A stretch of 63,732 nt of DNA, filler included, from Lenisia limosa (Eukaryota > Protista > Breviatea), in the NCBI GenBank assembly GCA_001655205.1. It is 10 parts of 10 records of this genome, joined end to end, with 100 filler letters (N's around TTAATTAATTAA, not from the genome) between each part and the next. Parts side by side here need not be neighbours in the genome. Positions count along the whole stretch, not along the records: positions 1 to 5,538 come from LPNZ01009731.1; positions 5,639 to 9,749 come from LPNZ01011005.1; positions 9,850 to 17,652 come from LPNZ01008065.1; positions 17,753 to 20,259 come from LPNZ01000486.1; positions 20,360 to 30,065 come from LPNZ01005412.1; positions 30,166 to 39,002 come from LPNZ01004726.1; positions 39,103 to 56,344 come from LPNZ01009085.1; positions 56,445 to 58,572 come from LPNZ01006417.1; 2 more parts are not named here. One strand, 5' to 3'. This document shows positions 1 through 58,850 of this stretch, piece after piece. The first letter of the stretch is position 1. Each line of letters opens with the position of its first letter. Both the position numbers and the translations under genes were made by a program. The notes below the pieces were generated by a model. The model worked only from the letters and a program-made list of their open reading frames with translations, did not search any database and was not told the origin of the DNA.

Positions 1-3000
1 TTATACAGGGACCTCATCATTAACACTAGTCCCCCCAACCTTGTCAACACTCGTTTTCACTTGCCCTTGGAAAGCGGCAATACTCCAGCGGTTCTGGGCC
101 TCAGCTGAAGGCACAGTCACGCCAAATTGGTCCAATACGTCGTACTGAGGGGGGGGGGGAAGTAAAATTGGAAAATTTTGGAAACAAAAAGGCCCAAAAN
201 NNNNNNNNNNNNNNNNNNNNNNNNNNNNNNNNNNNNNNNNNNNNNNNNNNNNNNNNNNNNNNNNNNNNNNNNNNNNNNNNNNNNNNNNNNNNNNNNNNNN
301 NNNNNNNNNNNNNNNNNNNNNNNNNNNNNNNNNNNNNNNNNNNNNNNNNNNNNNNNNNNNNNNNNNNNNNNNNNNNNNNNNNNNNNNNNNNNNTTCTATA
401 CCCACTTTCTCATTATACCTACTTTGTCACTCATGCTCATGATTTGCGATGAGAGGAATTCTATTCTTGAGGGTAATGAGTCCACATAAGTGACCTGAGT
501 CGCCCATTCGTCAGGAGTAGTAGGCACAAACTGTTTGGTTGTTATAATACTACAATATTCATTTTGGGGTTGGGTTATAAGCGGAATTATGAGCAGAAAT
601 GTTGGATAGGGTTATAGCAGAATGATAAATAAAAAGGGATGTGGCTGGCCGAAGCCGTTACCTTCATGTAGCTATATAGGATATGCCTATTATGACCCCC
701 CCCCCTCTCGTTACAATATACATAAAAAACTGGAATTTCCCCCAAAGTTATAATAAACCCATAAATGGCAAAAAAGAAACAAAATAAACAAAAAAAAAAG
801 CCCTCATACCTCAAGTTTATTATAAATGCCCTCAAAAGCCGCCCGAATGGTACGACTCTCTGATGACGCTAAAACAAGTCAAATTAACCAAGTCAGATCA
901 TGAGGCTAAACCAAGTCGAAAGATAGTTCATCATTTCCACCCCCCACCCATATCCCATATGATCTGGACCACTCCATGCGCCAGGCCACTTGCCATATCT
1001 GTTAGTGACCGTTTGAGAGGCGACGAGTCCAGTCTAGAGCGTCAGTAGGGAACTGACAGCACTTATAGCGCAGTTTTGCTGTTCTACATATCAACCCTTA
1101 TGTAGCTGCCCTTATATAGACTAATGGAGCTGAGCTGGTTAGTCCTGTTTACTGAGATGGACTGATAATGTGGAATCCTAATCTGGATACACTATCCACA
1201 ACTCTTGGAATATTGATCCTCAACTCAATAAATTTTGACCCTTACAATCAAAACACTTCAAAACCACTTCAATATGTTCTCAGTTTGTATAGTTATCAAT
1301 ATATCCGAAAAAGACACGTCAAATATCGATATTTTCAAGGATTATAAAAAACTCTGTTTTTTTTTTCAAATCATCAAGAAGGCCAGGGCATACCTAAACA
1401 AGCTGTAGTACACAACAGGAGGGATGATCCTTGCAATTTGCTCAGATACATCGCGATGACGATGTGTACGGGAAACTAGCTCGGATAATGAAGGACGGGC
1501 CGCTGTGAGGCTTTCAATATACTCACCCCTGGTGGCGTTAGAACGTGGTCTTTTTTTTTGATATAATATAACATTGTATTAATATTGTTGACCCCCTCCC
1601 CCTCAGCATAGACTTGGTATGTAGTGTATTATTCATGAACACATCAATGTGGCTTCTTTTGGAAGGTTGGATACAGAGCGTTAAAGTATTAATATGATAT
1701 GTATAATTACAAGACAAACAGCATATTCCTTAACACACCTGTTGAGATGGTGGTCCAGAAGAGCTCTGTAAGGCAGCAAAGATGCCAGGAACCTAATGGT
1801 GTTAACCAAAAAGACTTTCTTGTGTCGAATGATCATACGGCTGACTTGTGAGTCGAAATAATGAACGAAGACACGAGGGTTTATCCCGAGTGTATAATTG
1901 AGACTTGTCGGTCAATTATCATACGAGTGGATATGAGGTATCATATCACTGCGTGGNNNNNNNNNNNNNNNNNNNNNNNNNNNNNNNNNNNNNNNNNNNN
2001 NNNNNNNNNNNNNNNNNNNNNNNNNNNNNNNNNNNNNNNNNNNNNNNNNNNNNNNNNNNNNNNNNNNNNNNNNNNNNNNNNNNNNNNNNNNNNNNNNNNN
2101 NNNNNNNNNNNNNNNNNNNNNNNNNNNNNNNNNNNNNNNNNNNNNNNNNNAAATATCCGTAACGCGGGAATGAGAGCTGGAAAAGGTATGTCTGGCTGAG
2201 TCCGTCCACTCACACACGCTCATCATTCTAAGATGATACAGCGCATATGATATGACATTTCAAGATAATGACCGGGATGAGTTCTGACCGATTTTCTATG
2301 TGAAGAATCGGTGAAGATTTACCTCAGTCACTGTGTAACCATATATTATACTATAACAAATCTCCAAAACCTTAAAGACAAATGCAACAAGCCACCCCAT
2401 TCAGATTGAGCCCAGCCAAACCTTGTCATTCAAGTCGAATGGCTTCAGGCGGAAGTCGTGGTCGGATTCTGAAAGGACATTACAACAGTATAACTGGATC
2501 GACCTAATTTACCCCCCCCCCCNNNNNNNNNNNNNNNNNNNNNNNNNNNNNNNNNNNNNNNNNNNNNNNNNNNNNNNNNNNNNNNNNNNNNNNNNNNNNN
2601 NNNNNNNNNNNNNNNNNNNNNNNNNNNNNNNNNNNNNNNNNNNNNTCGTTCATTGTTTCAATGACCACGTCGATGACGTCACTCGCTTGTGGGTGGTAGA
2701 CCATTTCTGGGGGGTTATATATCTATATTACTATATCATTTAATTTCTGGGGGGTTATATAGTATGTATCATAAGATACAGTAGATAGTATCATATATGA
2801 TATTAAAAAATATATTATCATATGTACATATGTATATATCGATATGTTATTATAGTATATCATATAGCTAGTACATAATATATCGTAGCATATGTATATG
2901 TTTCAAGGTTAATGGGGGTACCCCCCTCCCCACCACTGCGGGCGGTCTCATCAGGGAGTACGACGAGAGAGACGCTGAAGAGGGGTTTGGAGGGTCCTCG

Positions 3001-5538
3001 TAATGTGGCAGGCTGACCGATCATCACCTCCCCTATTTCATGCTGAAACGTTAGAATCTGCTATTTTGTGTAGAAATAGACTTTTTCTAAAAAATCAATC
3101 AAGGCCATCCAAACCATCAGGTTATTAAGGACATTATTTACTTATCCAAAATATTGCCAAATGATGCCCCCACCTCCATATCCTTAGGTCCAGGTTGGGT
3201 TGTGAGGTTGAGTCTTTGGATGGATAGAGAGCGGAGCATAGCGATGTGAACCTGCAACGGTCATATCAGGTTTATGGTGTTTTTTTTTTGAAAAAATCTG
3301 ATTTTTGATATGGCCAATTAATTTTGAATTATATCCTTATACATACACATTATATACTATATTATATACTATATGATATCATATGTCTATGCAGAGAATC
3401 CTCGATATAGGCCATAGTCATAAGACCCACAGCATGTTCGATCATGAGATCTAGGAGAAGATAGAGGCGGCCCTGGTCAAACGGCAACTTCGCAGGAGGC
3501 AAGTCATCCAGAAAGTGGGCTGGAACAGACTATAGGGGTTAAAAGAGAGGGATATATACAGAGATGAGAATTAAAAAAATAAGGTTGGATCTGGCCGAAG
3601 CCGTCCACACCATCACGTTTATAAGAGATAATGGATTATAGTATTATCCCAATCATCTGCCTTACAACTCTGTGTACACAGCTTACTGCGTGCCTCCCCA
3701 ATATATGTTCACAATAATAATAATATATGTATATATCATATATAAAGGAGAGGGATAGCCGGATAAAACCAAAATCACATAATATAATATAATAATTTGG
3801 TATGGCAGAATTGGGACCCCCTCACCTCTCTTTGAACCTTATCCAAGTGGCTGAGAATGGAGGTGATTGTCGAGAGAGCTTTGCGGCTAATGGAAGGAAT
3901 GTGGATAGTTTGAACCTATAATAATGAGAGAAACTTGCTAAATAAATTCAACATACATGTATGATCACCAACTCCCTCCCCCACGCTTTCTATGAATGCA
4001 GTCCTAGCAGCATTATGCAGGGCCTTAAACCGATCGATGCTCACTGCGTCTGTCTGGGCCTCAGGTGACAAGGGGGTCTGGAGGGATCAACGGCGTACTT
4101 AATAGAGGTGTTATAACCCATATATATATTATATGCATATATATAGGTATATATATATCCAGTTTCTATTTCATATATCCAGTTTCTATTTACGATGCCA
4201 TATTACTTTTACTAGGCTTACGGGGGCGGGAGGTAACGAAACAAATCAACACTTTTGGATGAAACGGTTTTTAAATTTCAGTTCAATTATTTTTGAAACA
4301 AAAAAACAAAAAAACAAGGGGGGTGATCCTACCAAAGAAATAGTTTCACATATTTCAGCAGTAAACTGAATGAGTTTCATGAGGGACGGCTGGATCGGCA
4401 GCAGAGATGAAGAAATACTAGGTACGTGAGGGGATGATGGGACTCTTCACAATTCATATGGGCGTTAAACTAGTACAATAGACGACCCATCTTAGCCAAT
4501 ACTATTCCAACACTATCAATCTGTGAATAACAACAATAAGATATCCAGTCCCCCCACGCTGCCCTTGCCTCGGCAAAGCCTGAAAAAGCCTCGAATTTCT
4601 GAGTGCATTTGAAGTCCTCAACTTTGAGAATTGATAGAGGAAAATGCTACAAAATGTGAGGTTGGAATCAATACAATAACTAGGACTTCTCAACGGTCCG
4701 AAAAATACCATTAAAATAACGATATTCTTCGAGGAGTTATCGAGAAATTCAGACTTTTTTAGGATGTGGGGAAGTACTAACAGTAACAGATAACAGAAAA
4801 AAATAACTGTGAAATTAAACGTTTGCTTTATTATTGTTTTAACACAAGAAGCCAAATAAAATATCGTAAACAATGTAAAGAGGTTCAGTTTATTTGCTAT
4901 TTGATTCACGCATCTCTATCTCTATCACAAGCTTCGAATTACTGTACTCTCCTGGCTTCTACTCACTCCCTGTTTGTATTTGTGGCTGCTTTGACTAAAT
5001 TTTCCAGTTTATATTGCAAGTATAGCCTACGCCACGGACCTTTTTCTCAAACTCGGCAGTCATGATTGGGTCACTTTCCAGAGAGTGGACCAAAAGAGCT
5101 TGCTTCTNNNNNNNNNNNNNNNNNNNNNNNNNNNNNNNNNNNNNNNNNNNNNNNNNNNNNNNNNNNNNNNNNNNNNNNNNNNNNNNNNNNNNNNNNNNNN
5201 NNNNNNNNNNNNNNNNNNNNNNNNNNNNNNNNNNNNNNNNNNNNNNNNNNNNNNNNNNNNNNNNNNNNNNNNNNNNNNNNNNNNNNNNNNTATTGGCGGA
5301 TAACACCGAAGGTTAAGAACAACAAAAAACAAAGGTATTGATGATGGTAGCTACGCTTTGTTTTTCCACTAATGGCTACAAATTTATATCCCCGCAAAAT
5401 TGGCTATACCCCCCACCCCCACCCCCCACCTTATGTGGCTCTGCTGAGCTTGGTCAACGAGATCAGATAAATGCTCCTCTCTCACGCCACTCATCCAGCT
5501 GCGCGCCTGCGTACCAAACACCCGGTTGTTCAGACTGT
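1..5538 (-). CDS. DNAH1: Axonemal inner-arm dynein heavy chain (DNAH1-like), N-terminal tail region; multi-exon, partial at both ends
   Basis: Hand-spliced minus-strand exons give ...EEHLSDLVDQAQQSHIR...KPLFSVSLVV...EMVYHPQASDVIDVVIETMN...SLSELVSRTHRHRDVSEQIARIIPPVVYYSLFRLDSSPLKRSLTDMASGLAHGVVQIIWDMASSESRTIRAAFEGIYNKLEFVPTTPDEWATQVTYVDSLPSRIEFLSSQIMSM...YDVLDQFGVTVPSAEAQNRWSIAAFQGQ (last exon seen 61-144). This is collinear with the DNAH1 tail as I recall it (PLFIVDLVL...KPNSIEELAELREWMKGIPERL...YQVMDEFLYNLSSDDFNDKW). Intronic repeat modules are also minus-oriented. Confidence 0.75.
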
Positions 5539-9849: not shown

Positions 9850-12800
9850 GGGGGGGGGTAAAACGAAGGACATTTCGATGAAGAATATTGGCGTAGAGGT
9901 GGTTTCTTTGGAAAATTTATGAAACAAAATAAAGAAGTTCAAACTCTGTTGGCTGATAACACATGAGTGTTGATAACAACAAAACAAACTAAGCCCAGGC
10001 CGGGGGAGTAAAACTGGAAAATTTATGAAACAAAAAAAGCCCAAAATAAGTAAACCGAAGGTCATTTCGAAGAATTTGTACCGAATAATCTGAAACAAAC
10101 AAAAAACAAATAAACAAAAACACAATAATAGGAGCAGCCAACCCACCTAGAGGACAGGCGCCGCCGAGGCCTTCTGGAGGAGGTACAGTACCGGAATCGT
10201 ACTTCTGCTCACCTGAAAAGGTAAGGTTATTCATTATTGACTATGTTTTATTAGGGCCCCCAAAAAGACCAAATTTATCGAGAAACCAGCGATAAATATT
10301 GATATTTTACCGGTCTTTTTCGGACCGTAGGTAAGCCCTAAATATGTAATACTGATAATATATTGTATTTGTTCGCTTGAATAAGTGGAAATGTACAGTG
10401 ACCAGGATAAGTCTTCACCGATTTGCTCAATGAATTGTTAACCCCCCACCCACCCTTAACAGTGCCCTTGGTGAAGAAGACGGAAGAGCTCTTCTCGTTG
10501 TCGGGAATTGCGNNNNNNNNNNNNNNNNNNNNNNNNNNNNNNNNNNNNNNNNNNNNNNNNNNNNNNNNNNNNNNNNNNNNNNNNNNNNNNNNNNNNNNNN
10601 NNNNNNNNNNNNNNNNNNNNNNNNNNNNNNNNNNNNNNNNNNNNNNNNNNNNNNNNNNNNNNNNNNNNNNCTGAGGGACGGCTTCCCTAAATCCGAGTTA
10701 ATGGACTTGAGAAAAACTGGGCTACTGTATAAGAATACAATATTATCTCAAACACATACACACACACTATGATAAATATCATCACATAATAATCGAACAT
10801 ATCATATGCAAAATATAACTAAGGCTTCACTTCGTTTCGAAAAAAGACTGGATTTCCCCATAAATCTTCGAAAACTATCGATATTTTGACGGTCTTTTTC
10901 GAACCGAAATGAAGCCCTACAATAACCCTATTAAACCTATTAAACCCACATACAACTCCAATCATATAATTCACACTCATATCATCTTGATTATACCAAG
11001 GGCTTCACTTCGGTTTTAAAAAGACTGAATTTCTCGATAAATCCTCGATAAATACCGATATATTATCAGTCTTTTTCGAACCGGAGTGAAGCCCTAGCCC
11101 CCACACAACAAACACGCCCACCCCAACTATTACGTACAATAATAATATATATATAAAAATAATAATAATAATAAAAAAAAAATAACAAACATATAAGCAA
11201 TGAGAAATGAAAAATAAGGATGTATCTGGCCGAAGCTGTCCACACCATCACGCTTANNNNNNNNNNNNNNNNNNNNNNNNNNNNNNNNNNNNNNNNCATA
11301 ATATATTAATAATAATAATAATAATAATATCCCCCTACAGCAGCCACCGGGAAGTCCCGTCTGAGAGCGGCCGTTACGGTTTGCAGAGTTTCGGTGTTCC
11401 AGACTTGGCCGAGGGATGCGGCTATGGGGGTAAAAGAAGGGGGGAGACAAATTGGACAATTTATGAAACGAAAAAGCCCAAAACCAGCTAACACACAAGG
11501 GTTGATAACAACNNNNNNNNNNNNNNNNNNNNNNNNNNNNNNNNNNNNNNNNNNNNNNNNNNNNNNNNNNNNNNNNNNNNNNNNNNNNNNNNNNNNNNNN
11601 NNNNNNNNNNNNNNNNNNNNNNNNNNNNNNNNNNNNNNNNNNNNNNNNNNNNNNNNNNNNNNNNNNNNNNNNNNNNNNNNNNNNNNNNNNNNNNGGAAAA
11701 TTTATGAAACAAAAAAAGAACCCCAAAATCAACCTCTGTTGGCTATTATTCTTCCCAACCTTCAGCATTCTTGGCAAGAGCAGTATAGGGCAGTCCTCCA
11801 GCAAAGCAGAATGTACAATCCGTGACCTTTCGAGGTAAATGAGTGGGTGTGATAGCAACACTAACATCACAAACAACAAACAACAAACAGTCATGCACTG
11901 GAGGATGGCAGACCACACCATCACGGTTACAAATTCGCCCAAATTATTTGCCTTACAACTCCATGCACATTGATTAGATATAGCAATGAGAAACAAAAAA
12001 AAACAAGGTTTTATCTGGCCGAAGCCGTNNNNNNNNNNNNNNNNNNNNNNNNNNNNNNNNNNNNNNNNNNNNNNNNNNNNNNNNNNNNNNNNNNNNNNNN
12101 NNNNNNNNNNNNNNNNNNNNNNNNNNNNNNNNNNNNNNNNNNNNNCCCTCGATTATTCCATGATAATCCACAACAAAACCTCGATTATTCCACGATAATC
12201 CACAATAAAACCTCCGTACCTTGTTGTCGACGTCAAGAGTGACGGAAAGCGCCCCATTGCAGATGGCAATGTCATCATCAACGCGGCGACCCTGCTTGTA
12301 GAACTGAATGGTCGTATTGTCTGGGGGGGGGGGGNNNNNNNNNNNNNNNNNNNNNNNNNNNNNNNNNNNNNNNNNNNNNNNNNNNNNNNNNNNNNNNNNN
12401 NNNNNNNNNNNNNNNNNNNNNNNNNNNNNNNNNNNNNNNNNNNNNNNNNTTATGAAATAAGAAAGGGCAGATCTTAGGTAGGCTTGATCAGATCCCGATA
12501 TTTAGTAGGGCATTTCCCAGGAAACCAAGTTCTACTTAAGTACTGTATATGTGAGGAATTGATGAAGGAAGTTAGACTAGTGAATCGATCGGATATAGCA
12601 AGAAGCTTCCAGCTCAGCACGGAGGCCCTGGTAGTCCAAGGAATGTCAGCTCTATTTTCATAGTGATAATAGACTGAATGGAGTTCCAAAACACCAGTCA
12701 GCGAGATTATGGATCAGATAGAGGGACTTAACGAAGATAGAGGGTTGTTTCGTGTTTCCAAGGTGGTTTACCCCCCCTTTTGGCCTTATTTGGGCGATTC

Positions 12801-15800
12801 GACCTTTTGTTTTTAATAACTATTCCGCCCTCAAAAAAAAAGTGAGTTATAGATCTAGAAGTTTTTAATAGTCAGTATTTAATTATTTTTCGAAGTATGA
12901 GATATAGGCTGGCTAATGTGAGAAGTTGATGACACAGGGAATTCAGTGAACATTCTTGTGGTTGATTATATTAATAATTACGTTAATGCATATTGTTTAT
13001 AGAAGCTGTAACAGAGAAGGCAATTAACGAATAGACAATGATTGCGGATCTCTAATTTCTTTTTTCTCTCGATATCCTCTCCTCTGATCTGTAGCTGAAT
13101 ATCATCAAGCTGAAGAACCCGTAACCATCTCTAGATGTCGTCTGTCAAGACAATCTATCAATTCCCTGTTATCATTACACACGAGGTTGTTACTGGTAGT
13201 CGCTATGAATATTACATTTATTACAAAGCTTATCTATGTAGCTCCTCAGCCCCCTGACACTTCTCCATTGAAGGCTCCCAATCCCCCTTCTCCAATTAAA
13301 CCACCTCCCAAAATGCCTAGTTTGTAAATATATTATATACTACATGTATACATAGATGTGTTATTTTCTTAACCATTCAGAACGTAACACTCCCCTCGCA
13401 AAGAGCCAAGTTTGTGAATATACTATATGGCTGTTTTTAATTATTTAGAACCTTACATTCCCTATGTCCCCCACGGCCAACCACCACCTCCGCCTCCCTA
13501 GTGAGTCCAATCTCCCTTCTACGTAACACTCAACCCCCTTTCCCAACTCGCAAAGAGCTAAGTTTGTGAATATCAAAGCCAACTCTATTGAGAGGAGGTA
13601 ATTAATTGATGGGGTTCTGTGTGTGTTCAAATACGAGAATTTAATATTTCCAAAATCTTCTTGTGTACGTCTGTTTTGAGTTTTGACACATATTTTTTAT
13701 TAAATCTTTTCAACAACTTCTAATGTGATTAATACTCCCCCCCCCCCAAACCACTTGGCCACGGAACAGTAATGGTTTCAATGATCTCATCAGCAGCAAG
13801 GTCAGTCTTCTTGTACTGGGGAGGAGTAAAGAGGAAATTTTTTGAAACAAAAAAAGAAGCCAAAATCAACTCAGTTGGGTAAATGATAAGGGGGGGGGGC
13901 AATTAAGTCTGGGGAGGAGTAACTGGGAAATTATATATTAAAAAAGAAAAAAAGCCTAAAATCAACTCCTCCATTGGCTATTAACACACGACGGTTGAAA
14001 ACAACAAAACAAGCAAAGCCCAGGCCAGTCTCTTCTTCAGCACTGCATCCCATCACTCCAGTGCAAAACGTGAAATTTATGAAACAAAATAAATTCACAA
14101 TTGTACNNNNNNNNNNNNNNNNNNNNNNNNNNNNNNNNNNNNNNNNNNNNNNNNNNNNNNNNNNNNNNCCCCCCTCACGCCCAGATAGAAGTCCTTTGCG
14201 TTGACGTAGCGCGAGGTCTTGCCATTATTGATCTTGTACACCGCGCGGCATGCCACCATCATCGGCGAAAAGTCGGACGTGGGGCTTCCTGAGGACAGAG
14301 ACGCGGCGATACAGGCCATATTACGTACCTGGGAGTGAATTACAGAAATAGTCGATAAGTCCTTATCCACCTTAGCTCTTATCCACCTTAACTCTTACTC
14401 TTCCCACCTGGTGACCAGCAAAGGTTGAGATAAGGTTCAGAAGGCTCTCAGCGATGTGTGCCTTCTCGGGCTGGGCCTTAATTTTCTTNNNNNNNNNNNN
14501 NNNNNNNNNNNNNNNNNNNNNNNNNNNNNNNNNNNNNNNNNNNNNNNNNNNNNNNNNNNNNNNNNNNNNNNNNNNNNNNNNNNNNNNNNNNNNNNNNNNN
14601 NNNNNNNNNNNNNNNNNNNNNNNNNNNNTTATTATGAGACTTATCCCCCCGCACCTAGTCAGTGTCACGGCACCACCAATTCGAAGGCCCTCAGGGGTAT
14701 CTTCTAAGCCAAGCATTTCAGACACGCGTGCGAGACTGTACGGAAATTAAATTTTAAAAAGATAACATTCGAGAAATTAAATTCAACACAGAAAACAATC
14801 TACAGAATTAATTAGATAAAGTGACCAATCTACGGATTTTTACCTTCAAATTTGTATCAGTATTGCGAAGGTTCACTGGAAAAAGAAGCATGGTAGAGGA
14901 CCACATAATAATCATAAGATATAGCAAACCAGATCCCCCCTCCCCAGCACCTAATAAAGCACTTGTGGTACTTGCCAGCCTTTTTGTCCTCAAAACGGTC
15001 GGTATTTCCCACAATGAGCACGGCGCGGGGGTAGGCATCCTGGGGGGAGGGGGGAGTAAAATGGGACAATTTATGAATTAAAAAAAAGGCCCAAATCAAC
15101 TCTGTTAGCTGACACATTGATAACAACAAAACAGACAAAGGGGTGGGGTTTCCCCCGGGTACCCACCAAGAGGGCAAAAACATCGCGGATGTTCGAGGGG
15201 CTGAACCACTGAGTTTCCTCGTGTTTAGCGTGGAGGTTTGCTGGGGGGTTAAAAAGGGGAAACGTATAGATGATTCGGAACTACGATGGGCCTTATAACT
15301 CTACACACAGCCTTCTATTATTATATACCCCCACCACTCTCCCCCTTGAGATCAAGACATAATACAAGTATAATAATACCTCCCGGTCATACAGTAGTAT
15401 ATTATATTATGATATAATTAGTAGTATCTCAACCACACACCCCCCCCACTAGGCGAATGAGTGGCGAGATACGCCGGGAACCGGAGCTGGTTGCGGCCGT
15501 TGTGGATGGGCACACCGGTAGACTCGGCTGGCAAGTTGGCCTCCTCGATTTCACCAGGTGTTCCACAGGTTCCGCAGACACTGGAGGAGTAAAATGAAGG
15601 AAATTGACAGAAAAATTGAAACAATTCTGGAACAAAAAACCCAAAATCGCAGACACTTGGTGTGAAATGATGATGAGGGTGGGGGGAGTAATATTGGAAA
15701 ATTTTTGAAACAAAAAAGCCCACATCAACTCTATTGGCTGACGACAACACACAAAGGTTGATAANNNNNNNNNNNNNNNNNNNNNNNNNNNNNNNNNNNN

Positions 15801-17652
15801 NNNNNNNNNNNNNNNNNNNNNNNNNNNNNNNNNGCGAAGGAAATAAGGGGAGGTGGGGTAAGCTTCAATCAACAATATGAACTGTAGTTGCATTCCCAAA
15901 AGAGACAAGAACTTTCAGTTCCAAAAGACAGGTTAAATATCGATCTTATGCTTGTTTTAAAAAACCGAGTTATTGATACATTTTCGCACCCGCCCACTTG
16001 CCACAACCGCAGGCAGAAATTTCAGCAGCTTCAGCCTAAGAAAATGAGATTGGGATTTATCCATAATTAGATAAATATGGTATAGTATGTAGAAATGAGA
16101 AAAAATAGGGGTATCAGGCCGAAGCCGTCCACACNNNNNNNNNNNNNNNNNNNNNNNNNNNNNNNNNNNNNNNNNNNNNNNNNNNNNNNNNNNNNNNNNN
16201 NNNNNNNNNNNNNNNNNNNNNNNNNNNNNNNNNNNNNNNNNNNNNNNNNNNNNNNNNNNNNNNNNNNNNAACAAAACAATTGTATCAGGCCGAAGCCGTC
16301 CACATAATCACGCGTATAAGAGATTTTAAATGATTGTATAATATTAATTCACCCAATCATTTACCTTACAACTCTGTACACACAGCTTTCTGCATGCCTC
16401 TATACTATGCACATAATTATATGCATATAGCTAGACAACACATCACTCCCTCTCACGTCATCAGTCGCCTCTTTCTCGGGTTGCTTCTCACCATCTTGCA
16501 CCTTCTTCAGCGCATCCAAGATTGGTCTGGAGAGGGGGATAAACATTAAAATTTTATGAACAAAAAAATCCTGCTCATATGCATCCTCATTTATTACCCA
16601 TATCATTTTAATATATATGTAAGTCTTGACCGATTTGTCATATGATTTCTCAGGAAAATCGGTCAAGACTTATCCCGGTCACTGTACATTGTAAATAATA
16701 TTATACCCACACACCTATATCCGGTACAGCGGCACAGGTTGCCATCAAGAGCATGTTCGATTTCAGCGTCGGAGGGGTGCTCGTGGGTGGCGAAGAGCGC
16801 ATACGCAACGTTTGCTATTCCAGGCGTACAGAATCCACATTGGACGGCGTGGTTGTCGGCCAGGCCTGGGGGAGTAAAATTGGAAAATTTATGAAACAAA
16901 AAGCCAAAGTCTTTTTTCGAACTGAAGTGAAGCCCTAATTATGTATCTCATATATCTGCATATAGCAGCCCACTTTTCCGGATGGGGAGAAGTTCCTTCC
17001 CGATATTGTAGTATATCACATACCTCGGACTTCACTTCAGTTCAAAAAAACCCCTTAAAATATCGAGAGTTTTTGAGGATTTATCGAGAAATTCAGTCTT
17101 TTTTTGAACCGAAGTGAAGCCCTAATGATACCCCTTCTGAGCCCCGCTTTTTTAGATCGGGATACCACCACCACACGCAACACACTGCATTAACTGACCC
17201 ACATTATCAGTCACCCCCTTTTTGGTCTTTATTCGAGCAACTCCCATATTTTATCAGCCCTATTTTGGATGGGATAAAAATCCTTGCCGAATAGTATGTC
17301 ATATCATATACTATGTATCTAATATATCTGCATATATCAGCCCACTTTTCTGGAGTGAAGGACCTTCCCGATATTGTACTACATATCGTAGACCCCCTTT
17401 TTATCCTCAACTTTTCTGGATAGGATGAAGGTCTTTACGGAATATAGTAATACATATACTTGCCCACTTTTCTGAATGGGGTGAAGGTCCTTGCGGGATC
17501 CGAGGGCTTCGACGGTGGTGACAGCCATGTGGTGGACAAGACAAAGGGGAGTCAGGCAGGCATTGCAGGTGCGGATCCTGGGAGAGTAAAATAGAAGAAT
17601 TTATGATACACAGATACTCAAGGGAAGTGGGTACTAAAGGGAAGATAAAATG
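9850..17652 (-). CDS. XDH: Xanthine dehydrogenase/oxidase: 2Fe-2S domains, FAD domain and linker; the Moco domain is lost at the contig end
   Basis: Exons encode [26 protein letters not shown] (17460-17578), [15 protein letters not shown]...[12 protein letters not shown] (16719-16865), [81 protein letters not shown] (12230-12323) and [20 protein letters not shown]. Confidence 0.93.
10254..10338. mobile_element. MITE family 1 copy, TA-flanked on both sides, in an XDH intron
   Basis: TA|gggcccccaaaaagacc...ggtcttttcggaccgtaggtaagccc|TA, with the family's internal ctcgataaat/atcgatatttt core. Confidence 0.75.
10822..10917. mobile_element. MITE family 1 copy (~95 bp)
   Basis: TIR ggcttcacttcgtttcgaaaaaagact...ggtctttttcgaaccgaaatgaagccc, with TA on both flanks. 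Confidence 0.85.
11000..11094. mobile_element. MITE family 1 copy (~95 bp)
   Basis: TIR gggcttcacttcggttttaaaaagactg...cagtctttttcgaaccggagtgaagccc|TA. Confidence 0.85.
12146..12218. repeat. 32-bp tandem repeat (two copies plus a partial) beside an XDH donor site
   Basis: cctcgattattcca(t/c)gataatccacaa(c/t)aaaa occurs twice. Each unit contains the inverted pair gattat...ataatc. Confidence 0.85.
12480..13610 (+). CDS. Possible nested antisense gene fragment (Pro-rich exons) inside a ~1.4-kb XDH intron
   Basis: Plus-strand AG/GT-bounded blocks with compatible phases: [67 protein letters not shown], then [26 protein letters not shown] and [17 protein letters not shown]. No homologue recognised. 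Confidence 0.35.
13909..14070 (-). mobile_element. Intronic 3' module B (Introner-like), long copy in XDH
   Basis: Sense sequence gcactggagtgatgggatgcagtgctgaagaagagactggcctgggctttgcttgttttgttgttttcaaccgtcgtgtgttaatagccaatggaggagttgattttaggctttt...ttactcctccccag. It is stacked on a second copy ending at the real acceptor (13817-13880). Confidence 0.8.
16271..16400 (-). repeat. Intronic module A, copy in XDH. Others at ~3560-3697, 11200-11256, 11905-12028, 16070-16134, 18920-19060 (+), 33485-33530 (+), 61430-61500, and partials at 640 and 2180
   Basis: Sense sequence gaggcatgcagaaagctgtgtgtacagagttgtaaggtaaatgattggg...tctcttatacgcgtgattatgtggacggcttcggcctgatac recurs in dynein, XDH, GPAT, KH and QNG1 introns, always host-sense. 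Confidence 0.85.
16620..16684. mobile_element. MITE family 2 copy (left end truncated)
   Basis: aagtcttgaccgattt...aaatcggtcaagacttatcccggtcactg|TA. The same TIR occurs at 38608-38685 and as a half copy at 10396-10425. Confidence 0.8.
16960..17490 (-). repeat. Decayed tandem copies (~60-65 bp) of an XDH exon end plus donor site, interrupted by a MITE-1 copy (17027-17122)
   Basis: The real junction cccacttttctgaatggggtgaaggtccttgcg (17463) is echoed at ~17408, 17341, 17268 and 16968. Confidence 0.75.
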
Positions 17653-20215: not shown

Positions 20216-20399
20216 CCACCCTTAACCCCTCCCCCCCAGCATGTTCCCCATGTTCCACGNNNNNNNNNNNNNNNNNNNNNNNNNNNNNNNNNNNNNNNNN
20301 NNNTTAATTAATTAANNNNNNNNNNNNNNNNNNNNNNNNNNNNNNNNNNNNNNNNNNNNTATATATCTGTTTCATTTTAACACAAACTAACAGCACCCT

Positions 20400-23329: not shown

Positions 23330-26010
23330 TCGATCACAACCTTTCAATAACACATTTAGACCTTCGTTTTGACCTTGTGTCGGAACTCCCCGTGCCCAAC
23401 TGTGTGTCATCAACCAACACTTGCTCTCTTGAGTCCAAGAACCTTCCACACGTTAGTACTCTTTTTTGATGGTCAATGTGTATTTCATATATTCTTTTTT
23501 CTTGTTTTCTGAAATCACCTCATAGGTTGCCTATCTTCGTGAACGGGAATGGTGAGTTGCCAGGAAGCCAGCAATCTGGACCTGAGTGTTGTGTTTTTCA
23601 AAAACTCTTTTGGGTTAATGAAGAAATTTTTTATACTCTGGCATTATCACCTCATAGGCTCGCTACAGCTCCACACTCAGTCAATGCTTCTTACAGCCAA
23701 GTTGAGCTTTTCCGGTCCATTGATGATGGTCAAACTTGGACAAGTGAAGGTTCGTATTGTTTTTCAAGTCCATTATCACACTCTTTATTTGGAGATAAAG
23801 TGGGCAGTCATCTTAACCTTTAGGAATTGTGACATCAACCCCTTCAACAACTTTCCGATCAGCTTTGTCTGTCAATGACAATACGGTTGTTGTTGCACTG
23901 TTTGAGGGATTAGTTGGGATTCATTCCCACTTGAAAAGGTTTTCGAAGATGATCGAGAATGTCAGTCTTTTTCACACAAAATGTAACGCTTAATTATTTA
24001 CACTATAGACTCGCCTACCCCCAACCATTGAAGCTATATACCTACATCTCTCAAGATTACGGTGTTACATTTGTGAAGAAAATCGTCCCCTTTGATATGA
24101 TTGGATATGTGGGGAGGGGGGGGGGTAAAACGAAGGTATCTTCGAAATATTTACAAGAGTGATCAACAGGATATTAGCAGTATCATCACTTTCATTAATG
24201 TCTTCTCCAGACGGACAGTTTCCATCTTGCCTTCGACACGTCTCGAAATGAAATGGTCTTTGTTGGATGTCAGCGGAGGCGGGTTTTTTGATGTCACTCT
24301 TTTCCCTTTCTTTCGTATTTTTTACGTATTAGCTGTTTTTAATGACACGAACGCACATTTGATGACAGTGACGCTTGACTCCTCTCTCAACTTTGGAACT
24401 GTCAAACCTCTCACTTACCCTGTTGGCTGGTGGTGATGATAACTAGGTAAATTGAAAGATGCTTGAGATGGCACCATCATGTTATGATTTTCAACCATCC
24501 TTGATAATAGCACAATTGTCACTGTTTTAGCTTTCATGGGTAGTCAAAGGAAACACTTATGAGCCCACACTCTTTGTTGAGCATGGAAAATGGATGGTAT
24601 GATGAGGTATTTATTGAACAACTTTTATGTTCAGCTTTGACAACTTTTTCTAACCTCTAATAGGTTACAGCCCATAGCTTCGCAAAGGCTGTTAATGACT
24701 CTTCAATAGACGTTTCTGGTGGAACTGTTTTCATGTTCGTCAGCTACGACTCTGGTATGCTGTGGGACAGGCATAATGTACTTCTTCTTTATTGTTTCGA
24801 AATGAGTAAGTGGCCACATCGTCACGTGGTATTAATATATCATATTCACTCATTTGTTCATTACCAGTGACTTCTTTGCTGTTTTCTTTGTTTGCTTTGA
24901 TAACCTTCAAGGTGATACATGGAGTAGACATACCATTTCAGATCCTTTTAAGTGAGTGGTTGCGTTTAATCAAAACCTTACCAAAAATCATGATATGCTA
25001 CGTTTTTTTTTTTGTTTTCTGCACATACACTTAATTGATTTAGTCCTTCTTATTCGCCGCGCACCATTTCAAGTGGAAACGGGAAACTCCTTGTCACACA
25101 TACCCCGAGCATTTTTGCGTGGTCAAGTATGATGGGACTTGTGACATTTATGTTGTATCATTTTCGTAAATAAAAATACAAATGTGATTGTAATGATATA
25201 GCGGATGGAGGAAGAAGCTTCTCCTCTGTTGGAGCTTGGGACTACAGCCAACAGTCGACTTTGCTGTCAGGAACCCAGGCTTTTACCCGGTCACGCCCCG
25301 ACCTTGTTTATGGTGTGCGGAGGGGGCATATTGTGAACGTCTTCTGTCTTATCTGACTCTAATAGACGATGAAAATGCGGGAATGGTGAACATCTTAAGG
25401 TCAGCTCCAACCAATGGTGCTCCAAGCGGAGATGGTGGGGGGTATGTTGACAAAGTATTGCCATTTGTCAATTCCATTTTTTTATTATTATTTTTACTGT
25501 ACTTTAGTCTGAAATGATAATTAATTTGAAAATAGATTTGCTGTAACAACTTTAGGCCTCTGGGTGGCTGGCTTGGATGTCGCATCTGGTACTGTTGACT
25601 ATCCAAAAAAGGTCAACCTTCAGCCCGCTTTATGTTTGCTGAACCTTGTGCCACTATTTTTTTCTCTTTTTTTCTTTATTAAATATTTTTATCAAGCTTC
25701 ATATCTGTTTCGCTTCCTCAGATTGTGGTTCTGTTCAGTTGATTACTTAAATATACATCTTACCCCCCCTCCCCAGCCGCTGATGAAATTCCTTTGAATG
25801 TCCAAGGACAACGCTCAGCTAGTAAAGCAACCTGGATCATCACTGTCCCCTATGCTCATACCGTCGGCAGGTTCATTTCAAACCTGAACATTCTATTTGC
25901 AATGTTGACCCCTTCCCCCGTACTTTGTGTGACTCGATTCATTAACTCTTCAGGTTTCAACAGACACGGTCATTTCTTATCGAATCTACAGAGGAGTATG
26001 TCCTCTCTAG
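23330..26010 (+). CDS. BNR/Asp-box repeat beta-propeller protein (sialidase-fold-like), with many short introns
   Basis: Asp-box motifs RSIDDGQTW (~23715), YISQDYGVTF (~24045) and ADGGRSF (~25200) lie in consecutive GT-AG exons. Start and end are approximate. Confidence 0.6.
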
Positions 26011-33800: not shown

Positions 33801-36461
33801 TTACTCTCCTAGCGTCGTAACAACGGTGACGGTTCCGCCCCGGAACTTGCCCCTCCCGCTGAGGTCCTCGTTGAGGACACCATCATTGGCTTCATCATTG
33901 GTGCGTGGATCTTATTTTATGATTTGTTTTTAAGAGAAATAATATTGGAAATCTAGGGAACAAAATTCGATACCATAAACAAATTACCATAACGCACCTT
34001 CATTTGTTTTCCTCCTCCCCTTGATTTTTATGTCGGCCAACAGAGTTGATTTTGGACTCTTTTTTATTAATTTTTTTTATTGTTATTATTTTTATTATTA
34101 TTATTCATAAATGTCCTATTTTTATTTACTCCCCCTCAGGCCGCGGAGGTGAGACTATTCGCGCCATTTCTCAGGAGGCTGGATGTAAGGTTCAAGTCAA
34201 GGTTGGGGGGGGGGGTCAAGTTATATTGTATGGGGAGTGGTTATTTTCTTGACTGACCTGGGCTCTGTTTTCTTGTTATCAACCCTCGTTATCACCCAAC
34301 AGAGTTGGTTTTGGTTTTTTTTTTGCATATATTTTCCAATTTTTCCGCCGTGGAAATTTCCTTCGTTTTACTCTCCCCCCCCCCCAGGTTNNNNNNNNNN
34401 NNNNNNNNNNNNNNNNNNNNNNNNNNNNNNNNNNNNNNNNNNNNNNNNNNNNNNNNNNNNNNNNNNNNNNNNNNNNNNNNNNNNNNNNNNNNNNNNNNNN
34501 NNNNNNNNNNNNNNNNNNNNNNNNNNNNNNNNNNNNNNNNNNNNTGTAAATTCCGTTAATCATACAATATCACATGATTCTGCATTTATCAATTTTCCAA
34601 TTTTACTCCCCAGACTGCCGGAGAGGCCCGCAACCGCGTCGGCTCCAGCGGTGGCCAGCCCCAATACCACAACGCCCCCGGCTCCGTGCGTAAGATCTAC
34701 CTTATCCCGGCTTCTATGGTCGGTATTCTCATTGGTACGGGGGGCTTGTAGAAGACATATTAATGGGAATTCTCGAGATATTGGCTTCTTCCAGGTTTCT
34801 CACGTGTTGCTCAAGAGTTGAAATATGAGCTTTTTCTTTCTTTCCCCCTTAAAATTTTTTCAATTTACTCCCAGGAAAGGGTGGCGAGACCATTCGTGAA
34901 CTCCAGCAGACCTGCCAGTGCCGCATCCAGATCGATCAGACCGGTATGCCAAGTTATTAATTCCGTTCTTTTTGCTTATCGAATATTGGGGGGAGTAAAT
35001 AGAGAAATTATACTCTNNNNNNNNNNNNNNNNNNNNNNNNNNNNNNNNNNNNNNNNNNNNNNNNNNNNNNNNNNNNNNNNNNNNNNNNNNNNNNNNNNNN
35101 NNNNNNNNNNNNNNNNNNNNNNNNNNNNNNNNNNNNNNNNNNNNNNNNNNNNNNTCTCTCGCTCTCTCTTTTTTTTGTTTTTTTGTTTCATAAATATTCC
35201 GATTTCACTTTCCCCAACACCTCACCATGGCAGGATCCTCTCCCCAGGACACCAACCGTCGCATGACCCTGAGTGGTGCGCCCCATTGCGTCGACGCCGC
35301 CGTGCAGCAGGTCACCCAAAGAATCCAGGCCACTGGCGAAGGTTTGGGGTTTATAACTTTTGTTTTTATAATAGACAGGAGAATATCGATATAGAGCGGG
35401 GATGATTGTGATTTGTCTCTGCATTTTTTTTTTTGGTAAATTTCCCCGGTTCACTCCGTTCCCTCCAGGTGGATNNNNNNNNNNNNNNNNNNNNNNNNNN
35501 NNNNNNNNNNNNNNNNNNNNNNNNNNNNNNNNNNNNNNNNNNNNNNNNNNNNNNNNNNNNNNNNNNNNNNNNNNNNNNNNNNNNCCAACAGCCCGCTTAC
35601 GTAAGCATTTGGATTGTTTTGGGTGTGAATGGTATATTATTCCAAAGGCTTCACTTCAGTTCGGGAAAATATCGATTGTTTTCGAGGATTTATCGAGACA
35701 TTCAGTCTTTTTTCGAACCGAAGTGTATCCCTAAATATACCTGATTTTACATACGATACTATATTCTTACCGGCTTCTCAATTGTTAAGTCAGCAGAGTT
35801 GACACAGGTTTTTTTTTTTTTGCGTAATAATCTCAGGTGAACTGTTTTGATACGTTCTCTCATAATTTTGTTTTGTCTTCCCTGATTCAAAAACAGCATT
35901 TACACTAACCAGAGAGAGAGTTGATTCTAGGCAGTAATATTGTGGCCAGACATCCTTATTTTTTATTTCTCATTGCTATATTTTGTTTGTTTCATTTACC
36001 CCGTACAGGCAGGATACAACATGTACCAGCAGCAACCCCAGCAGGCTCAGGCCGCCGCCGCCGCCGCCCCCCAGGCTGACTACAGTGCCCAGTGGCAGCA
36101 GTATTTCGCCCAACAGGTGGGCTCTCTTTTTCCCAGCGTACATTATTAATGTTTCACTTGGTTCCAAACAAGACTCAATTTCTCGATAAATCCTCGAAAA
36201 CTATCGATACTTTGCCGGTCTTTTTTGAACCGAAGTGAAGCCCTGCCCTACATTATCCATCTGGACTGGACATTCGTTGAACAATCACCAAACAACGCGA
36301 TATTCAAAACATCAGTCTTTTTTCGAACCGAAGTGAAACCCTAGAAATTTACAAAGCACTAATACTTTTAGGCTGCAATGGGACAAACCCCCTCTGTGAA
36401 CGGCGTGGACTACTCCGCCTACTACCAGCAAATGCAACAACAGCAACAGCAGCAGAAGTAG
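30871..36461 (+). CDS. FUBP/KSRP-like multi-KH-domain RNA/ssDNA-binding protein with an acidic N-terminus and a Q/Y-rich tail
   Basis: KH motifs: MLVENQYVGVIIG; VLVEDTIIGFIIGRGGETIRAISQEAGCKVQ; YLIPASMVGILIGKGGETIRELQQTCQCRIQIDQ; TRE/RRMT-IT/L-SG. The tail QADYSAQWQQYFAQQ...DYSAYYQQMQQQQQQQK* matches the FUBP DYSxxWxEYY repeat. Some exons are lost in N gaps. Confidence 0.88.
32612..32689. mobile_element. MITE family 2-related element
   Basis: TA|cactgacggcgataagtcctgacacg...cgtgtcaggactcatcgcaatcagt. It shares the gataagtc(t/c)tgac TIR core with family 2. Confidence 0.7.
33718..33785 (+). repeat. (TTTTTC)n microsatellite upstream of a KH-gene acceptor
   Basis: About 11 tandem units are directly visible. 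Confidence 0.9.
34250..34387 (+). mobile_element. Intronic 3' module B copy in the KH gene
   Basis: tgactgacctgggctctgttttcttgttatcaaccctcgttatcacccaacagagttggttttgg...ttttccaattttccgccgtggaaatttccttcgttttactctcccccccccag ends at the acceptor AG. Confidence 0.85.
35646..35731. mobile_element. MITE family 1 copy in a KH intron. Others at 17027-17122, 36151-36243, 36310-36343 (half), 38110-38191, 44040-44104, 46512-46545 (half), 61062-61126 and 4682-4760 (decayed)
   Basis: aggcttcacttcagttcgggaaaatatcgattgttttcgaggatttatcgagacattcagtcttttttcgaaccgaagtgtatccc|TA. Confidence 0.85.
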
Positions 36462-37167
36462 AGCTGTTTCTTGTTCTGTCTTGTTCTTTCGATTCTATGG
36501 TCTAATGTATTACTATTTTTCTTCCCCCTTCTCGTTGACAAATGTTTCATTTTATGCCAATCCACTTTGTACCTCTCTCTGTGTTTACCTTTCTTGCGTT
36601 TTTATGAGTATAGTTTATCTGCCAAGGGGGTTATCTTTATTCACATGCTAGGGTTGTGCACCTTATTGCTGAAAAGCTAACAAAAATGCGAAATATCAAT
36701 TTCTCAGTTTTTCAGCTAAATCAATTTCAGCCATTACGCAGTGAAGTAAATTCTGTTTGTCAGGTTCAATCCTAAGTCTAGTAGCATCATATCGTACAGC
36801 AGGCTAGACTAAGGGGAAGGCTGCAGCTCTTGGAGCAATGAGCAACTTCCGACGAGAGAGGTCTCCTGTCCCTTCTGTAGGCCTTAATTAAGCGTTAAAG
36901 CGTGTTTATGCATGTTGAAAAGAGGGTTTGTCTTCAATACACTTCGCTGCTCCTCATGGTCTCTCTGTTCCTAATGCTGATTCTGATGCTTATCTAAATC
37001 TGTTTCACAATCTTCTTGCTCTTCACTGTTATTTTTCTTTTGTCATTTGCTATGCTCTGACTCTGCTAACCACACTTTCCGGCCCCATCCATCATTTGTT
37101 TTGTTTTGTTTTTGTTTCGTCTAAAACTTCCCCCACGCCCCCTCGTTTCACCTCATAAACACACACA

Positions 37168-37317
37168 GTGATGGGATGCGGTGCTACAGAAACGACTGGC
37201 CTGGGCTTTGTTTGTTCTGTTGTTCTCAACCCTCGTGCGTTTCTAGCCAAAAGAGTTGATTTTATTCTTTGTTGAATTTTCCCATTGAACTTTCTATTGT
37301 TTCACCCCCCCCCCCCA
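37168..37317 (+). mobile_element. Intronic 3' module B, long copy; the host exon is lost in the following gap
   Basis: agtgatgggatgcggtgctacagaaacgactggcctgggctttgtttgttctgttgttctcaaccctcgtgcgtttctagccaaaagagttgatttt...tttcacccccccccca. Confidence 0.85.
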
Positions 37318-38607: not shown

Positions 38608-38685
38608 CAGTAATCGCGATAAGTCTTGACCGATTTTCCTTGGAAAATCACATGGTAAATCTGTCAAGACTTATCCCGATCACTG
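38608..38685. mobile_element. MITE family 2, near-complete copy (78 bp)
   Basis: cagtaatcgcgataagtcttgaccgattttcc...aaatctgtcaagacttatcccgatcactg|TA. The CAGTG-type terminus and TA flank are typical of Tc1/mariner derivatives. Confidence 0.85.
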
Positions 38686-38720
38686 TATGTCACTTTTACT
38701 TGTATTATAAGTCATACATA

Positions 38721-38814: not shown

Positions 38815-38837
38815 TAAGCATACATCACAGTTTTCAG

Positions 38838-48100: not shown

Positions 48101-50380
48101 GGCCCATTGTGCGACTGCTACCTGCCTGTTGCTGTACAAAACATAATATCAAACAGAAACAATCCTTTGCTGGTGTGTTGTGCCTGTTTTTTTTAAAAAG
48201 TTATCCTGTTTTGTCTCGTCTTTTTAAGCACTTATTATTGTAGAAAGGGTTGCGACCACAGGAGTTTTCCCTTATTGTTGCCCGAACGATTGGCATTGAT
48301 GAAATTGCCACTTCTTTATCCCCTGCTGAAACCACTACAGTTTGCTGGAGAGGGCTGAGGATTATCTTGAAAATAAAACACTATTTTTTATATTATTTTT
48401 TTTTATTTCTGGAGTTACTCTATTCTCACCATTTCTGATATATTGTTGAACTAATGTGCTCTAGATAGTAAATACTTTTATGAGTTCTTTCACCGAAATC
48501 ATTGAAAAGGCTGAAGGATTTATCATTTCGTGAGAGGGTGGAAAAACTCAAAAGTATGTATAAGTATAGTGAAATACTCTTAATTATATGTGACACAAAG
48601 TTCCTTTTAACGGACTTGCAGAATCCTTTAACGGACTTGCAGGGTTATGAACACACGGTTCACAGCTGTGTTCAACTCGCCCGTTGTTCAAAGCGAACAT
48701 GTCGCAAAGGCAGTCGCCGCAGCAATGCATTTGATCAAGAAAGCCGAGAAACTGTCCAGGATCGNNNNNNNNNNNNNNNNNNNNNNNNNNNNNNNNNNNN
48801 NNNNNNNNNNNNNNNNNNNNNNNNNNNNNNNNNNNNNNNNNNNNNNNNNNNNNNNNNNNNNNNNNNNNNNNNNNNGATGATGTAGAGGGGGTAAGGAAGC
48901 AGGATTGAAGCTGGGGATGAAGGCGTGATGATGCAAAAGGTAAAGACTGATTTGGACTTTGTCATTGACTCTTTAGAATGAAATCAAGGGAGTCTCTCAA
49001 GAATTTTCTATGCAGTGGGTTGAGTATATTGAATGCCACATTCTGTGATTTTTTATTCCCTTCAGAATCGGAGTTACTCTTGAACGGGGAATGTCAGGCA
49101 ACATTGGTGAGCACAGAGAATTTTCAAGGAATTCAATACTTGTCGAATATCCCCACCTCAATCTTCAGGAACCCTAACAAATGGCTTCTTTGGTACGCTT
49201 GGCCCCTCAACAGAAGTTGCAATGAGCCTTTGCGCTCTTTGTTCTTACTACAAAGTGGGTCTCTGTATTTTTTCAAAAAAAACCTCAGTGTGGAGTTTGT
49301 GTGTTTGCCTGGGGAAATGTTATGCATGCTGGAGTGACGGGATGCGGTGCTGCAGAAGTGATTGACTAGGGCTTTATTTGTTGTTGTTTTCAACCCTTCG
49401 TGTCTCAAGCCAAAAAAGTTGATTTTGGGCTTTTTGGCTGTTTTATTGTTGTATTTTCCATTTTTACCCCCCTTCCCTCTCCAGGTGAATATTCTGACTT
49501 GTACTCAAGCTGCTCTTCTGTCAAAACGGCACATTCTGTTCCGTTGTGTTGATAAGGTTGGTGTGTAAGTTTACCCTATGTATTGAATGCTGGTACTCTT
49601 CTATAGTGGGTACATTTGATTGCCACTTCTTCCCTTTTATACCCCCCCCCCCTTGCAGGTGAAATACGAGTCCTTCAACGGCCTTATCTACCAGCCTCTT
49701 GGAGCATTATCTTCCCAACATACCATCAAATTAGTGCATAGCTACCACAACCTCCTCCAAGTTTGAAAAAGATACATATCATTGTCCTTCTCTCTACTTT
49801 TGGCAGGAACCCTGCCCAATCATCAGGTTGTTGAAGGTTCTCATTTCGTAGGCCTATTGGGAAGCAGAAGAGGGAACTTTCGACCCACTACTGCAGTCAA
49901 TCATTGACCATGAGGAGGCTTATGGGGAGGTTTGTGCGGGACGCTTTTTCGGAGAATTAGTTGTTAGTGAGTTAATTTGATAGTCATGCTGTTGTTGCTT
50001 TTCAGTATGTTAAAGAATATATCTTATCATATCTTATTGATTACCCATGAGAGTTTTCAAATGATTAGGCAACAGAGTTGATTTTGTGGGTTTTGTTTCA
50101 CCCGCCACACTCTAGGATGGGCCATGCGATAGTTTACGCAAAAGAGTCCAAAGGTTCATTGATTGTCCGCCTCGAGTTGATGGTGAGCGTTGGTTTGGAA
50201 CTTCAGGACCCCGCCAGTTTTTTTTATTATAGCAATGGCATTCAACTGTATGTGGTATTGATTTGAATTCTTTTTGCGTAACTGTTTTGATGAAGTGCCT
50301 CAAACCTTTGGACTATGCGATATCCTTTTTCTCACATTTTAGAGGAGACTCCAGCCACGGTTTTCGGAATGGTGTGTTAG
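45135..50380 (+). CDS. Class III adenylate/guanylate cyclase-like protein, many exons, catalytic motifs apparently degenerate
   Basis: C-terminal exons: FTAVFNSPVVQSEHVAKAVAAAMHL; IGVTLERGMSGNIG; VNILTCTQAALLSKRHILFRCVDKVKYESFNGLIYQPLG; DGPCDSLRKRVQRFIDCPP. These follow the order MAFWNAP/IGIGIHTG..GNIG/R.LD.V.VKG..IYEL/DGPS..L..R of this family. The N-terminal exon model is uncertain. Confidence 0.6.
49333..49484 (+). mobile_element. Intronic 3' module B, long copy in the cyclase gene
   Basis: gagtgacgggatgcggtgctgcagaagtgattgactagggctttatttgttgttgttttcaacccttcgtgtctcaagccaaaaaagttgattttgggc...tttttaccccctttccctctccag|GTG. Confidence 0.85.
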
Positions 50381-58672: not shown

Positions 58673-58754
58673 TGGCCCTGGTACCCGGAGGTCCCGGACT
58701 CGACAAGTGGCACCCCCGCGGTGAGGCACATTTTGTTGACGTGTCGTCTGGCGT
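58673..58754 (-). CDS. UBA2: SUMO-activating enzyme subunit 2, single visible exon
   Basis: [28 protein letters not shown] matches UBA2 [28 protein letters not shown]. It is preceded by a module-B acceptor. Confidence 0.8.
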
Positions 58755-58850
58755 CTGAGAAGAGAGGGTAAAATTGGACAATTTATGAAATAAAAAAAAA
58801 GCCTAAAATCAACTTTGTTGGCTAACAACACACGAGGGTTGAGAAAACAA
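58755..58850 (-). mobile_element. Intronic 3' module B copy at the UBA2 acceptor
   Basis: Sense ttgtttgttttctcaaccctcgtgtgttgttagccaacaaagttgattttaggcttttt...ttcataaattgtccaattttaccctctcttcag|. Confidence 0.85.

Follow-up and report, generated by a model that had tools for sequence, protein, structure and literature searches.

Roughly one in four of the introns that we examined ends, on its 3′ side, in one short, high-copy repeat; the introns are from a 63,732 nt stretch of the genome of the breviate Lenisia limosa (GenBank assembly GCA_001655205.1; hereafter the window), which is an intron-rich eukaryote. Complete copies of this element, also called the module here, are ~155 nt long and close on the right with a C-run plus AG. 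The copies are of common descent, lie in the sense of their host genes and occur at RNA-confirmed acceptors, whilst the 5′ parts of the introns that carry them are unrelated. A sequence-only reading of the window had proposed a family of Introner-like elements; on balance, we favour instead a non-autonomous mobile repeat that lands in introns already present, at the C-run preceding the acceptor AG, and thereafter provides them with a pyrimidine tract and acceptor.

The window consists of 10 contigs joined with spacers and contains many N gaps, and all counts of position and strand given below are from it. We modelled 105 introns by hand from reading frames; five of the exon spans between them had no open frame, mostly at unmodelled introns, so that a few models are incomplete. 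G+C content was 51.5 % at exon starts and 34.8 % in intron interiors. The host labels XDH, KH and UBA2 are backed by protein or domain searches. The dynein and cyclase labels are presumptive and come from motifs; protein and domain searches gave no match (for the dynein-like exon, none in PDB or Pfam). Searches for related proteins gave prokaryotic small subunits for an XDH exon and, for an RPL15 exon, a best identity of 84 %. Two public runs of one study contain the sequence, both as contigs, namely X1 (DNA) and X2 (polyA RNA); X1 may be the source of the assembly and as such is not independent of it.

Detection, orientation and 3′ ends of the copies

In order to locate copies, the main profile was seeded with 16 window copies and its threshold set at 13.0 bits, the best score of 20 shuffles. 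At or above this score there were 17 matches on five contigs; seed copies match by construction, and the non-seed matches are those at 33674 (19.1 bits) and 34033 (17.7 bits). An earlier profile built from 10 seeds gave the same picture. The strong copies lie on contigs 1, 3, 6, 7 and 9 and in five unrelated genes, in agreement with the sequence-only reading, which had placed copies on at least five independent contigs. Strong copies are present in 14 of the 105 modelled introns and weak ones in 11, with clusters in XDH and towards the 3′ end of the KH gene. More than 20 introns had been claimed; the 20 coordinates given occupy 18 introns (two pairs being tandem), and 18 of these coordinates exceed the shuffle maximum in one of three profiles, with 50065 borderline (11.3 bits) and 34845 not above chance (5.9 bits). 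Pairwise identity among copies is 51–81 % (median 70 %, 48 pairs), and the proposed common descent is supported, as is mobility.

Every copy had been described as host-sense, and this holds for all 16 strong matches with an assigned host (37167 has none). It does not extend to a variant 3′ end, B (the main form being A), which is antisense at 24113–24145 and probably also at 59796–59847. By exact pattern with one mismatch, the B end occurs five times where 0.03 are expected, and the antisense example at 24113–24145, which was not a seed, lies 4 nt from a donor and scores 16.6 bits against a shuffle maximum of 7.1. Two apparent antisense A ends seen by eye (61283–61327 and 34990) fail the profiles and were not counted. 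The 3′ end had likewise been called locked to the acceptor: of 17 strong matches, eight reach the used AG and two stop 15 and 38 nt short of it, whilst four are upstream tandem copies (two of them 92–94 nt from the AG) and three stop at an assembly gap. Contigs of the one RNA run confirm the module-bearing acceptors at 15040, 15581, 34613 and 35233, and show use of the acceptor at 15581 rather than of the upstream copy at 15675, which is without AG.

The copies and ends in the window are as follows (position, strand, description, with the basis in brackets).

13909..14061, minus: full-length element (~155 nt), host-sense in the XDH intron 14178–13816; terminal AG kept, 92 nt upstream of the acceptor that suits the reading frame (profile; fold z −2.55)
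13816..13882, minus: 5′-truncated copy finishing at an XDH acceptor, with a 10-C run just before the copy (profile)
49329..49484, plus: full-length element reaching the acceptor of the presumed cyclase-like gene and starting 74 nt past the donor (profile)
37167..37317, plus: near full-length element, host exon in a gap; the copy by which the left end of the family is recognized in other loci (profile, contigs)
145..198, minus: 3′ part at the acceptor of the presumed dynein-like gene, 5′ side cut by a gap (profile)
9850..10047, minus: tandem stack, an A end joined via its C-run to a truncated copy, then a B end; acceptor past the contig end (profiles)
11422..11513, minus: copy stopping 15 nt short of an XDH acceptor, 5′ side cut by a gap (profile)
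11695..11747, minus: truncated copy running into a gap (profile)
15040..15140, minus: truncated copy making up 100 of the 127 nt of an RNA-confirmed XDH intron, with a C-rich tract before the copy (profile, RNA)
15581..15650, minus: decayed A piece plus B end at the RNA-confirmed acceptor 15581 (profile, RNA)
15675..15764, minus: tandem copy that lies 94 nt upstream of the acceptor and has no terminal AG (profile)
16866..16908, minus: 3′ 43 nt at an XDH acceptor, adjoining the end of a miniature inverted-repeat transposable element (MITE) (profile)
24113..24145, minus: antisense B end where a plus-strand gene has its G-run donor (24109) (profile)
32028..32094, plus: truncated copy in the KH gene, acceptor in a gap (profile)
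33674..33812, plus: copy with a microsatellite expansion, reaching a KH acceptor, with a C-rich tract before it; absent from the list of the sequence-only reading (profile)
34033..34139, plus: truncated copy reaching a KH acceptor; the next exon begins at Pfam KH_1 position 17 (profile, Pfam)
34251..34387, plus: A copy extended by a B end up to a KH acceptor (profiles)
34585..34613, plus: final 29 nt at an RNA-confirmed KH acceptor (profile, RNA)
35175..35220, plus: 3′ part without AG, 13–18 nt ahead of the RNA-confirmed acceptor 35233 (profiles, RNA)
50064..50099, plus: short borderline copy, 16 nt ahead of an acceptor (profile, 11.3 bits)
58755..58851, minus: copy that runs up to the acceptor in UBA2; orthologues share the position of this intron (phase 1 at codon 120 of human SAE2) (profile, orthologue comparison)
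59796..59847, minus: B end at a G-run; its orientation is probably antisense to that of a small gene on the plus strand, whose model is uncertain (profile)

Anatomy of the element

The element has a fixed left end, since the window copies and contigs from other loci meet at the same CTGG: the copies with their left ends at 14061 (minus strand) and 49329 (plus strand) both begin there, and the 128 contigs of other loci that extend before 37167 give a T-rich consensus ending in CTGG at the matching point. The left end mirrors the right end over ~9 nt, imperfectly and with a variable G/C run, CCAG included; a donor-like GT lies five bases from the left end, with the acceptor at the right end. The ragged 5′ ends of the sequence-only reading are borne out by 12 true truncations among the strong matches, plus that at 50064, whilst 145, 11426 and 15683 are cut by N gaps; many loci have the fixed left end in common. 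Five of the 12 true truncations begin just before an AGCCAAC motif. Furthermore, X1 contigs contain joints at which a copy's 3′ end runs into the start of a different copy, and the first 42 nt of the element are seen in tandem. In other loci, the first 42–49 nt (37168–37216) form tandem arrays, and their summed depth is higher than that of the 3′ half.

A hairpin is significant in one of three full-length copies, and there with RNA parameters only, and was therefore rejected as a conserved feature of the element. A search of the window against Rfam returned no match at the gathering score, and an exact 22 nt pattern from the 5′ part of the element had no match in metagenome contigs. We also rejected a reverse-transcriptase stop at the branch point as the source of the truncations, since these retain AGCCAAC and do not start after it, and native branch-like motifs cluster ≤ 20 nt from the AG; that a branch point lies inside the element at all is a guess.

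Intron ends and intron positions

Introners are defined by similarity at both intron borders, and surveys discard secondary insertions, according to PMC9860276 and PMC12130899. A further mark of Introners, similar introns in at least four unrelated genes, is present here with strong copies in five genes, but the introns are alike at the 3′ border only. Over the last 50 nt the median local score was 26 for module introns vs 12 for controls, and over the first 50 nt it was 13 vs 12; in all 12 of the module introns compared, the element starts 26–559 nt from the donor. Module introns are also longer than others (median 258 vs 122 nt, p=0.0002). The mean border repeat was 1.87 nt in 15 module introns and 1.69 nt in 72 others, with no enrichment and thus no sign of target-site duplication, a feature of many though not all Introner families.

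In UBA2, the exon after the module intron maps to residues 121–146 of human SAE2. Of 545 orthologous DNA loci found, 80 were kept for comparison: an AG is present at the same codon and phase in 19 of them, 17 with a matching donor too, and the remaining 61 are uninterrupted; the module profile found no match in any of the 80. Because the same position is interrupted in module-free orthologous loci, the UBA2 intron, and so at least one module intron, existed before its module. Among the 150 best protein matches, 66 are genomic-DNA frames whose homology starts at that codon and whose residues there bear the mark of a phase-1 AG, a pattern that the query may favour, as it was padded with intron translation; 75 are contiguous and nine unclassified. 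None of the 66 lacks an A-ending codon at −2 (P=1.5e-9). One of them is from Microbotryum saponariae, so that fungi are among those with an intron at this position, and four carry a presumably animal-like motif. The public Microbotryum UBA2 model itself seems to carry intron-derived residues before the conserved exon, probably from a mis-chosen splice site.

Two KH exons that follow module introns begin at KH_1 position 17 in the same phase, which suggests that this intron position predates the KH domain duplications. The presumed exon boundaries of human UBA2, XDH and FUBP1 could not be verified in papers and were not used as evidence; on that presumption, XDH positions mostly differ from human. 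The Introner-like family of the sequence-only reading is not supported for these introns, and an ancient intron position, which it had named as evidence against intron creation, is found for UBA2 and suggested for two KH repeats. Its alternative, in which the element goes in at 3′ splice sites and itself provides them, withstands the tests of intron ends and positions.

Abundance and flanks beyond the window

To the 825 bp stretch 14940–15764, which contains three copies, 1,848 X1 contigs map, and summed depth there rises to ~145,000 vs 24.9 at unique bases; this is not a copy number, and we take it to mean no more than that the element has many hundreds to thousands of loci. In other loci the sequence after the 3′ end of the element is unique (agreement 0.36–0.41), and its consensus is 57–73 % G+C (majority letters of 34, 37 and 23 contigs), compared with 20–30 % for the flanks of two MITE ends and 33 % ahead of the element's left end. 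These downstream flanks, exonic in look, support locking to acceptors elsewhere in the genome.

Origin of the shared intron ends

The element makes up the final 30–155 bases of many introns, and it likely spread by insertion into pre-existing introns at the acceptor C-run. Copying would be anchored on C-runs, and target-primed copying from an RNA or DNA template would be somewhat more likely than cut-and-paste. Such anchoring would give the fixed 3′ end, the 5′ truncation, the stacking of new copies on old C-runs and the few antisense copies found where donors have G-runs; the pattern is likely sharpened by selection against copies that are antisense or lie in mid-intron. The antisense B end at a donor G-run counts for C-run anchoring, because a G-run is a C-run on the other strand. 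So do the end-to-start joints of other loci, and the site at 10002, where the C-run of one copy passes straight into the truncated copy that follows. A C-rich tract lies ≤ 35 nt upstream of seven of 16 true 5′ ends vs 7.2 % of background windows, in a test that was defined post hoc and in which two of the seven positives are the C-runs of tandem neighbours.

This qualification is one of several points that weigh against the reading. The full-length copies at 14061 and 49329 have no C-rich tract upstream, and the two full-length copies with both flanks show no target-site duplication (the copies are old, with a median identity of 70 %). Neither strand of the profile consensus contains RNA polymerase III A or B box motifs, and no autonomous partner element was seen in window-level material. 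The apparently inverted ends, CCAG included, fit a DNA transposon better than target priming, and the copy at 13909, its AG still in place 92 nt off the acceptor in use, tells us that an intact copy can persist off-target. Moreover, a second intronic repeat, family C (see below), is host-sense without reaching the AG, and strand bias may therefore be plain selection. The comparison of intron positions with orthologues covers one position, that in UBA2, the KH copy at 34874 is weak, and the test of flanks draws on the majority letters of a few dozen contigs rather than on a census.

The same introns might have other histories. If the element is a decayed Introner that once made whole introns, other insertions having since replaced or enlarged the 5′ parts of those introns, the donor-like GT near its left end and the acceptor at its right end would be explained, as would the intron of which it makes up 100 of 127 nt, and some Introners bring a 3′ splice site only (PMC9860276). 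On the presumed human XDH boundaries, a single XDH module intron matches, and several may therefore be lineage-specific. We nevertheless regard this history as quite unlikely, given the absence of similarity at intron 5′ ends or of longer border repeats, the pre-existing UBA2 position, a flank before the left end that in other loci is T-rich and not exonic, and an internal GT that does not serve as donor in either of the two full-length copies whose exons are known. Concerted evolution with no transposon, in which acceptors exchanged sequence by ectopic gene conversion or templated break repair, with C-run plus AG as the anchor, and one 3′ end overwrote others, is in keeping with the fixed 3′ end, the variable tract length and the missing target-site duplication, with a C-run at 31 of 96 acceptors and with a private terminal variant common to the tandem neighbours 13816 and 13909. 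It appears unlikely in view of the sharp common left end, whose apparent inverted symmetry with the right end fits a discrete element, and of the gain in length of module introns, as by insertion. Convergent or conserved selection for an extended splicing signal (a protein- or RNA-binding site) is very unlikely: the truncations that begin just before AGCCAAC look as if a functional unit were kept, but collinear similarity over 100–155 nt, tandem stacks and an antisense copy do not suit a signal, 80 of the 105 introns manage without the module, and so do the orthologous UBA2 introns.

Within the favoured insertion at acceptor C-runs, a more far-reaching version has the element actively target 3′ splice sites, its RNA (a mini-intron) being copied into acceptor C-runs by splicing- or transcription-coupled target priming, so that thousands of introns would have had their 3′ splice signals rewritten. 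We hold this version to be doubtful; if true, it would describe a splice-site parasite distinct from Introners, invisible to Introner pipelines and categorically new.

Comparison with known systems

Both Introners and transposons that lie within introns are familiar (PMC11282704), and the former have been surveyed in Micromonas, Aureococcus, Symbiodinium and fungi (PMC9860276, PMC12130899, PMC11282704). Like Introners as portrayed there, the present element is short, non-coding and multi-copy, occurs within the introns of genes that are unrelated, brings a 3′ splice site and has ends that appear to be imperfectly inverted; unlike them, it gives similarity at the 3′ border only, lies in pre-existing introns, is without target-site duplication and forms tandem stacks. 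The (AC)m-(GT)n introns of fish (PMC4691745) offer another likeness, in that repeats at intron ends replace ordinary 3′ signals, with G-run donors and C-run acceptors in the present case; those are simple-repeat expansions, however, whereas here the unit is complex and 155 nt long.

With MITEs in introns, of which there are two families in the window, the element has in common what we take to be class features (short, non-coding, high copy and, putatively, inverted ends), but it is strongly strand-biased and 5′-truncated, with its 3′ end fixed at the acceptor and no target duplication seen. Short interspersed nuclear elements (SINEs) and target-specific retroposons without long terminal repeats similarly combine a fixed 3′ end with 5′ truncation and insert into the tails of older copies; in contrast to SINEs, our element has no polymerase III boxes and no tRNA, 5S or 7SL head, and a C-run replaces the A tail. 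Alu exonisation also has a repeat provide pyrimidine tract and AG, but the present element supplies the acceptor of existing exons and makes no new ones. Helitrons have a 5′ TC and a 3′ CTRR and insert between A and T; a Helitron was rejected on the left end CTGG and the right end CCAG followed by any base. A targeted literature search, with limited coverage of subscription journals and with Introner survey supplements outside it, found no description of an element that supplies the acceptor of existing introns.

Other repeats and genes in the window

Family C is a second intronic repeat of ~150 nt, with a fixed 3′ end, ragged 5′ ends and all 11 matches host-sense, which stops between 30 and several hundred nt short of the acceptor. 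Its copies, found by profile, are:

3560–3697, minus
16268–16400, minus
18921–19071, plus
eight shorter copies

Two further intronic repeats are palindromic. A MITE of very high copy number with TAGGG...CCCTA ends, presumably hAT-like, is present at 11004–11095, 36153–36244, 35629–35737, 38101–38192 and other sites, and a repeat with CAGTG ends and TA flanks, presumably Tc1/mariner-like, at 16620–16685, 38610–38690 and 10380–10430. In the KH gene the first four introns (31150–31689) are short and repeat-free and most later ones (31783–36371) contain repeats, which suggests a repeat load that rises as a gradient from 5′ to 3′.

A G-run lies just past the GT in 39 of 97 donors, and the C-runs at 31 of 96 acceptors lie just before the AG. 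Donor G-runs and acceptor C-runs were not associated (p=0.47 for all introns, 0.23 for non-module introns), nor were modules and G-run donors (p=1.0). Many assembly gaps start at these runs. Pairing of G/C intron ends has reportedly been described in lancelet, a report that a literature search did not find. Additional genes are a queuosine salvage protein gene (60552–62050, minus; by Pfam), RPL15 (26192–26982, minus) and, by presumptive labels, a cathepsin B-like gene (50700–52960, minus), a GPAT-like acyltransferase gene (17753–20259, plus) and an ALADIN-like WD repeat gene (39103–40282, plus).

Implications

If insertion at acceptor C-runs is the correct reading, a selfish repeat hides in genes by becoming the 3′ splice signal of old introns and not by making introns. 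A repeat that serves as a splice signal would no longer be cleanly deletable, and this would provide a route by which splice signals turn over across the genome whilst intron positions stay conserved. It also carries a warning, in that introns that are alike at the 3′ end need not be recent gains. As published Introner searches discard secondary insertions, acceptor capture of this kind could be overlooked elsewhere; the pattern would be easy to screen for in other genomes.

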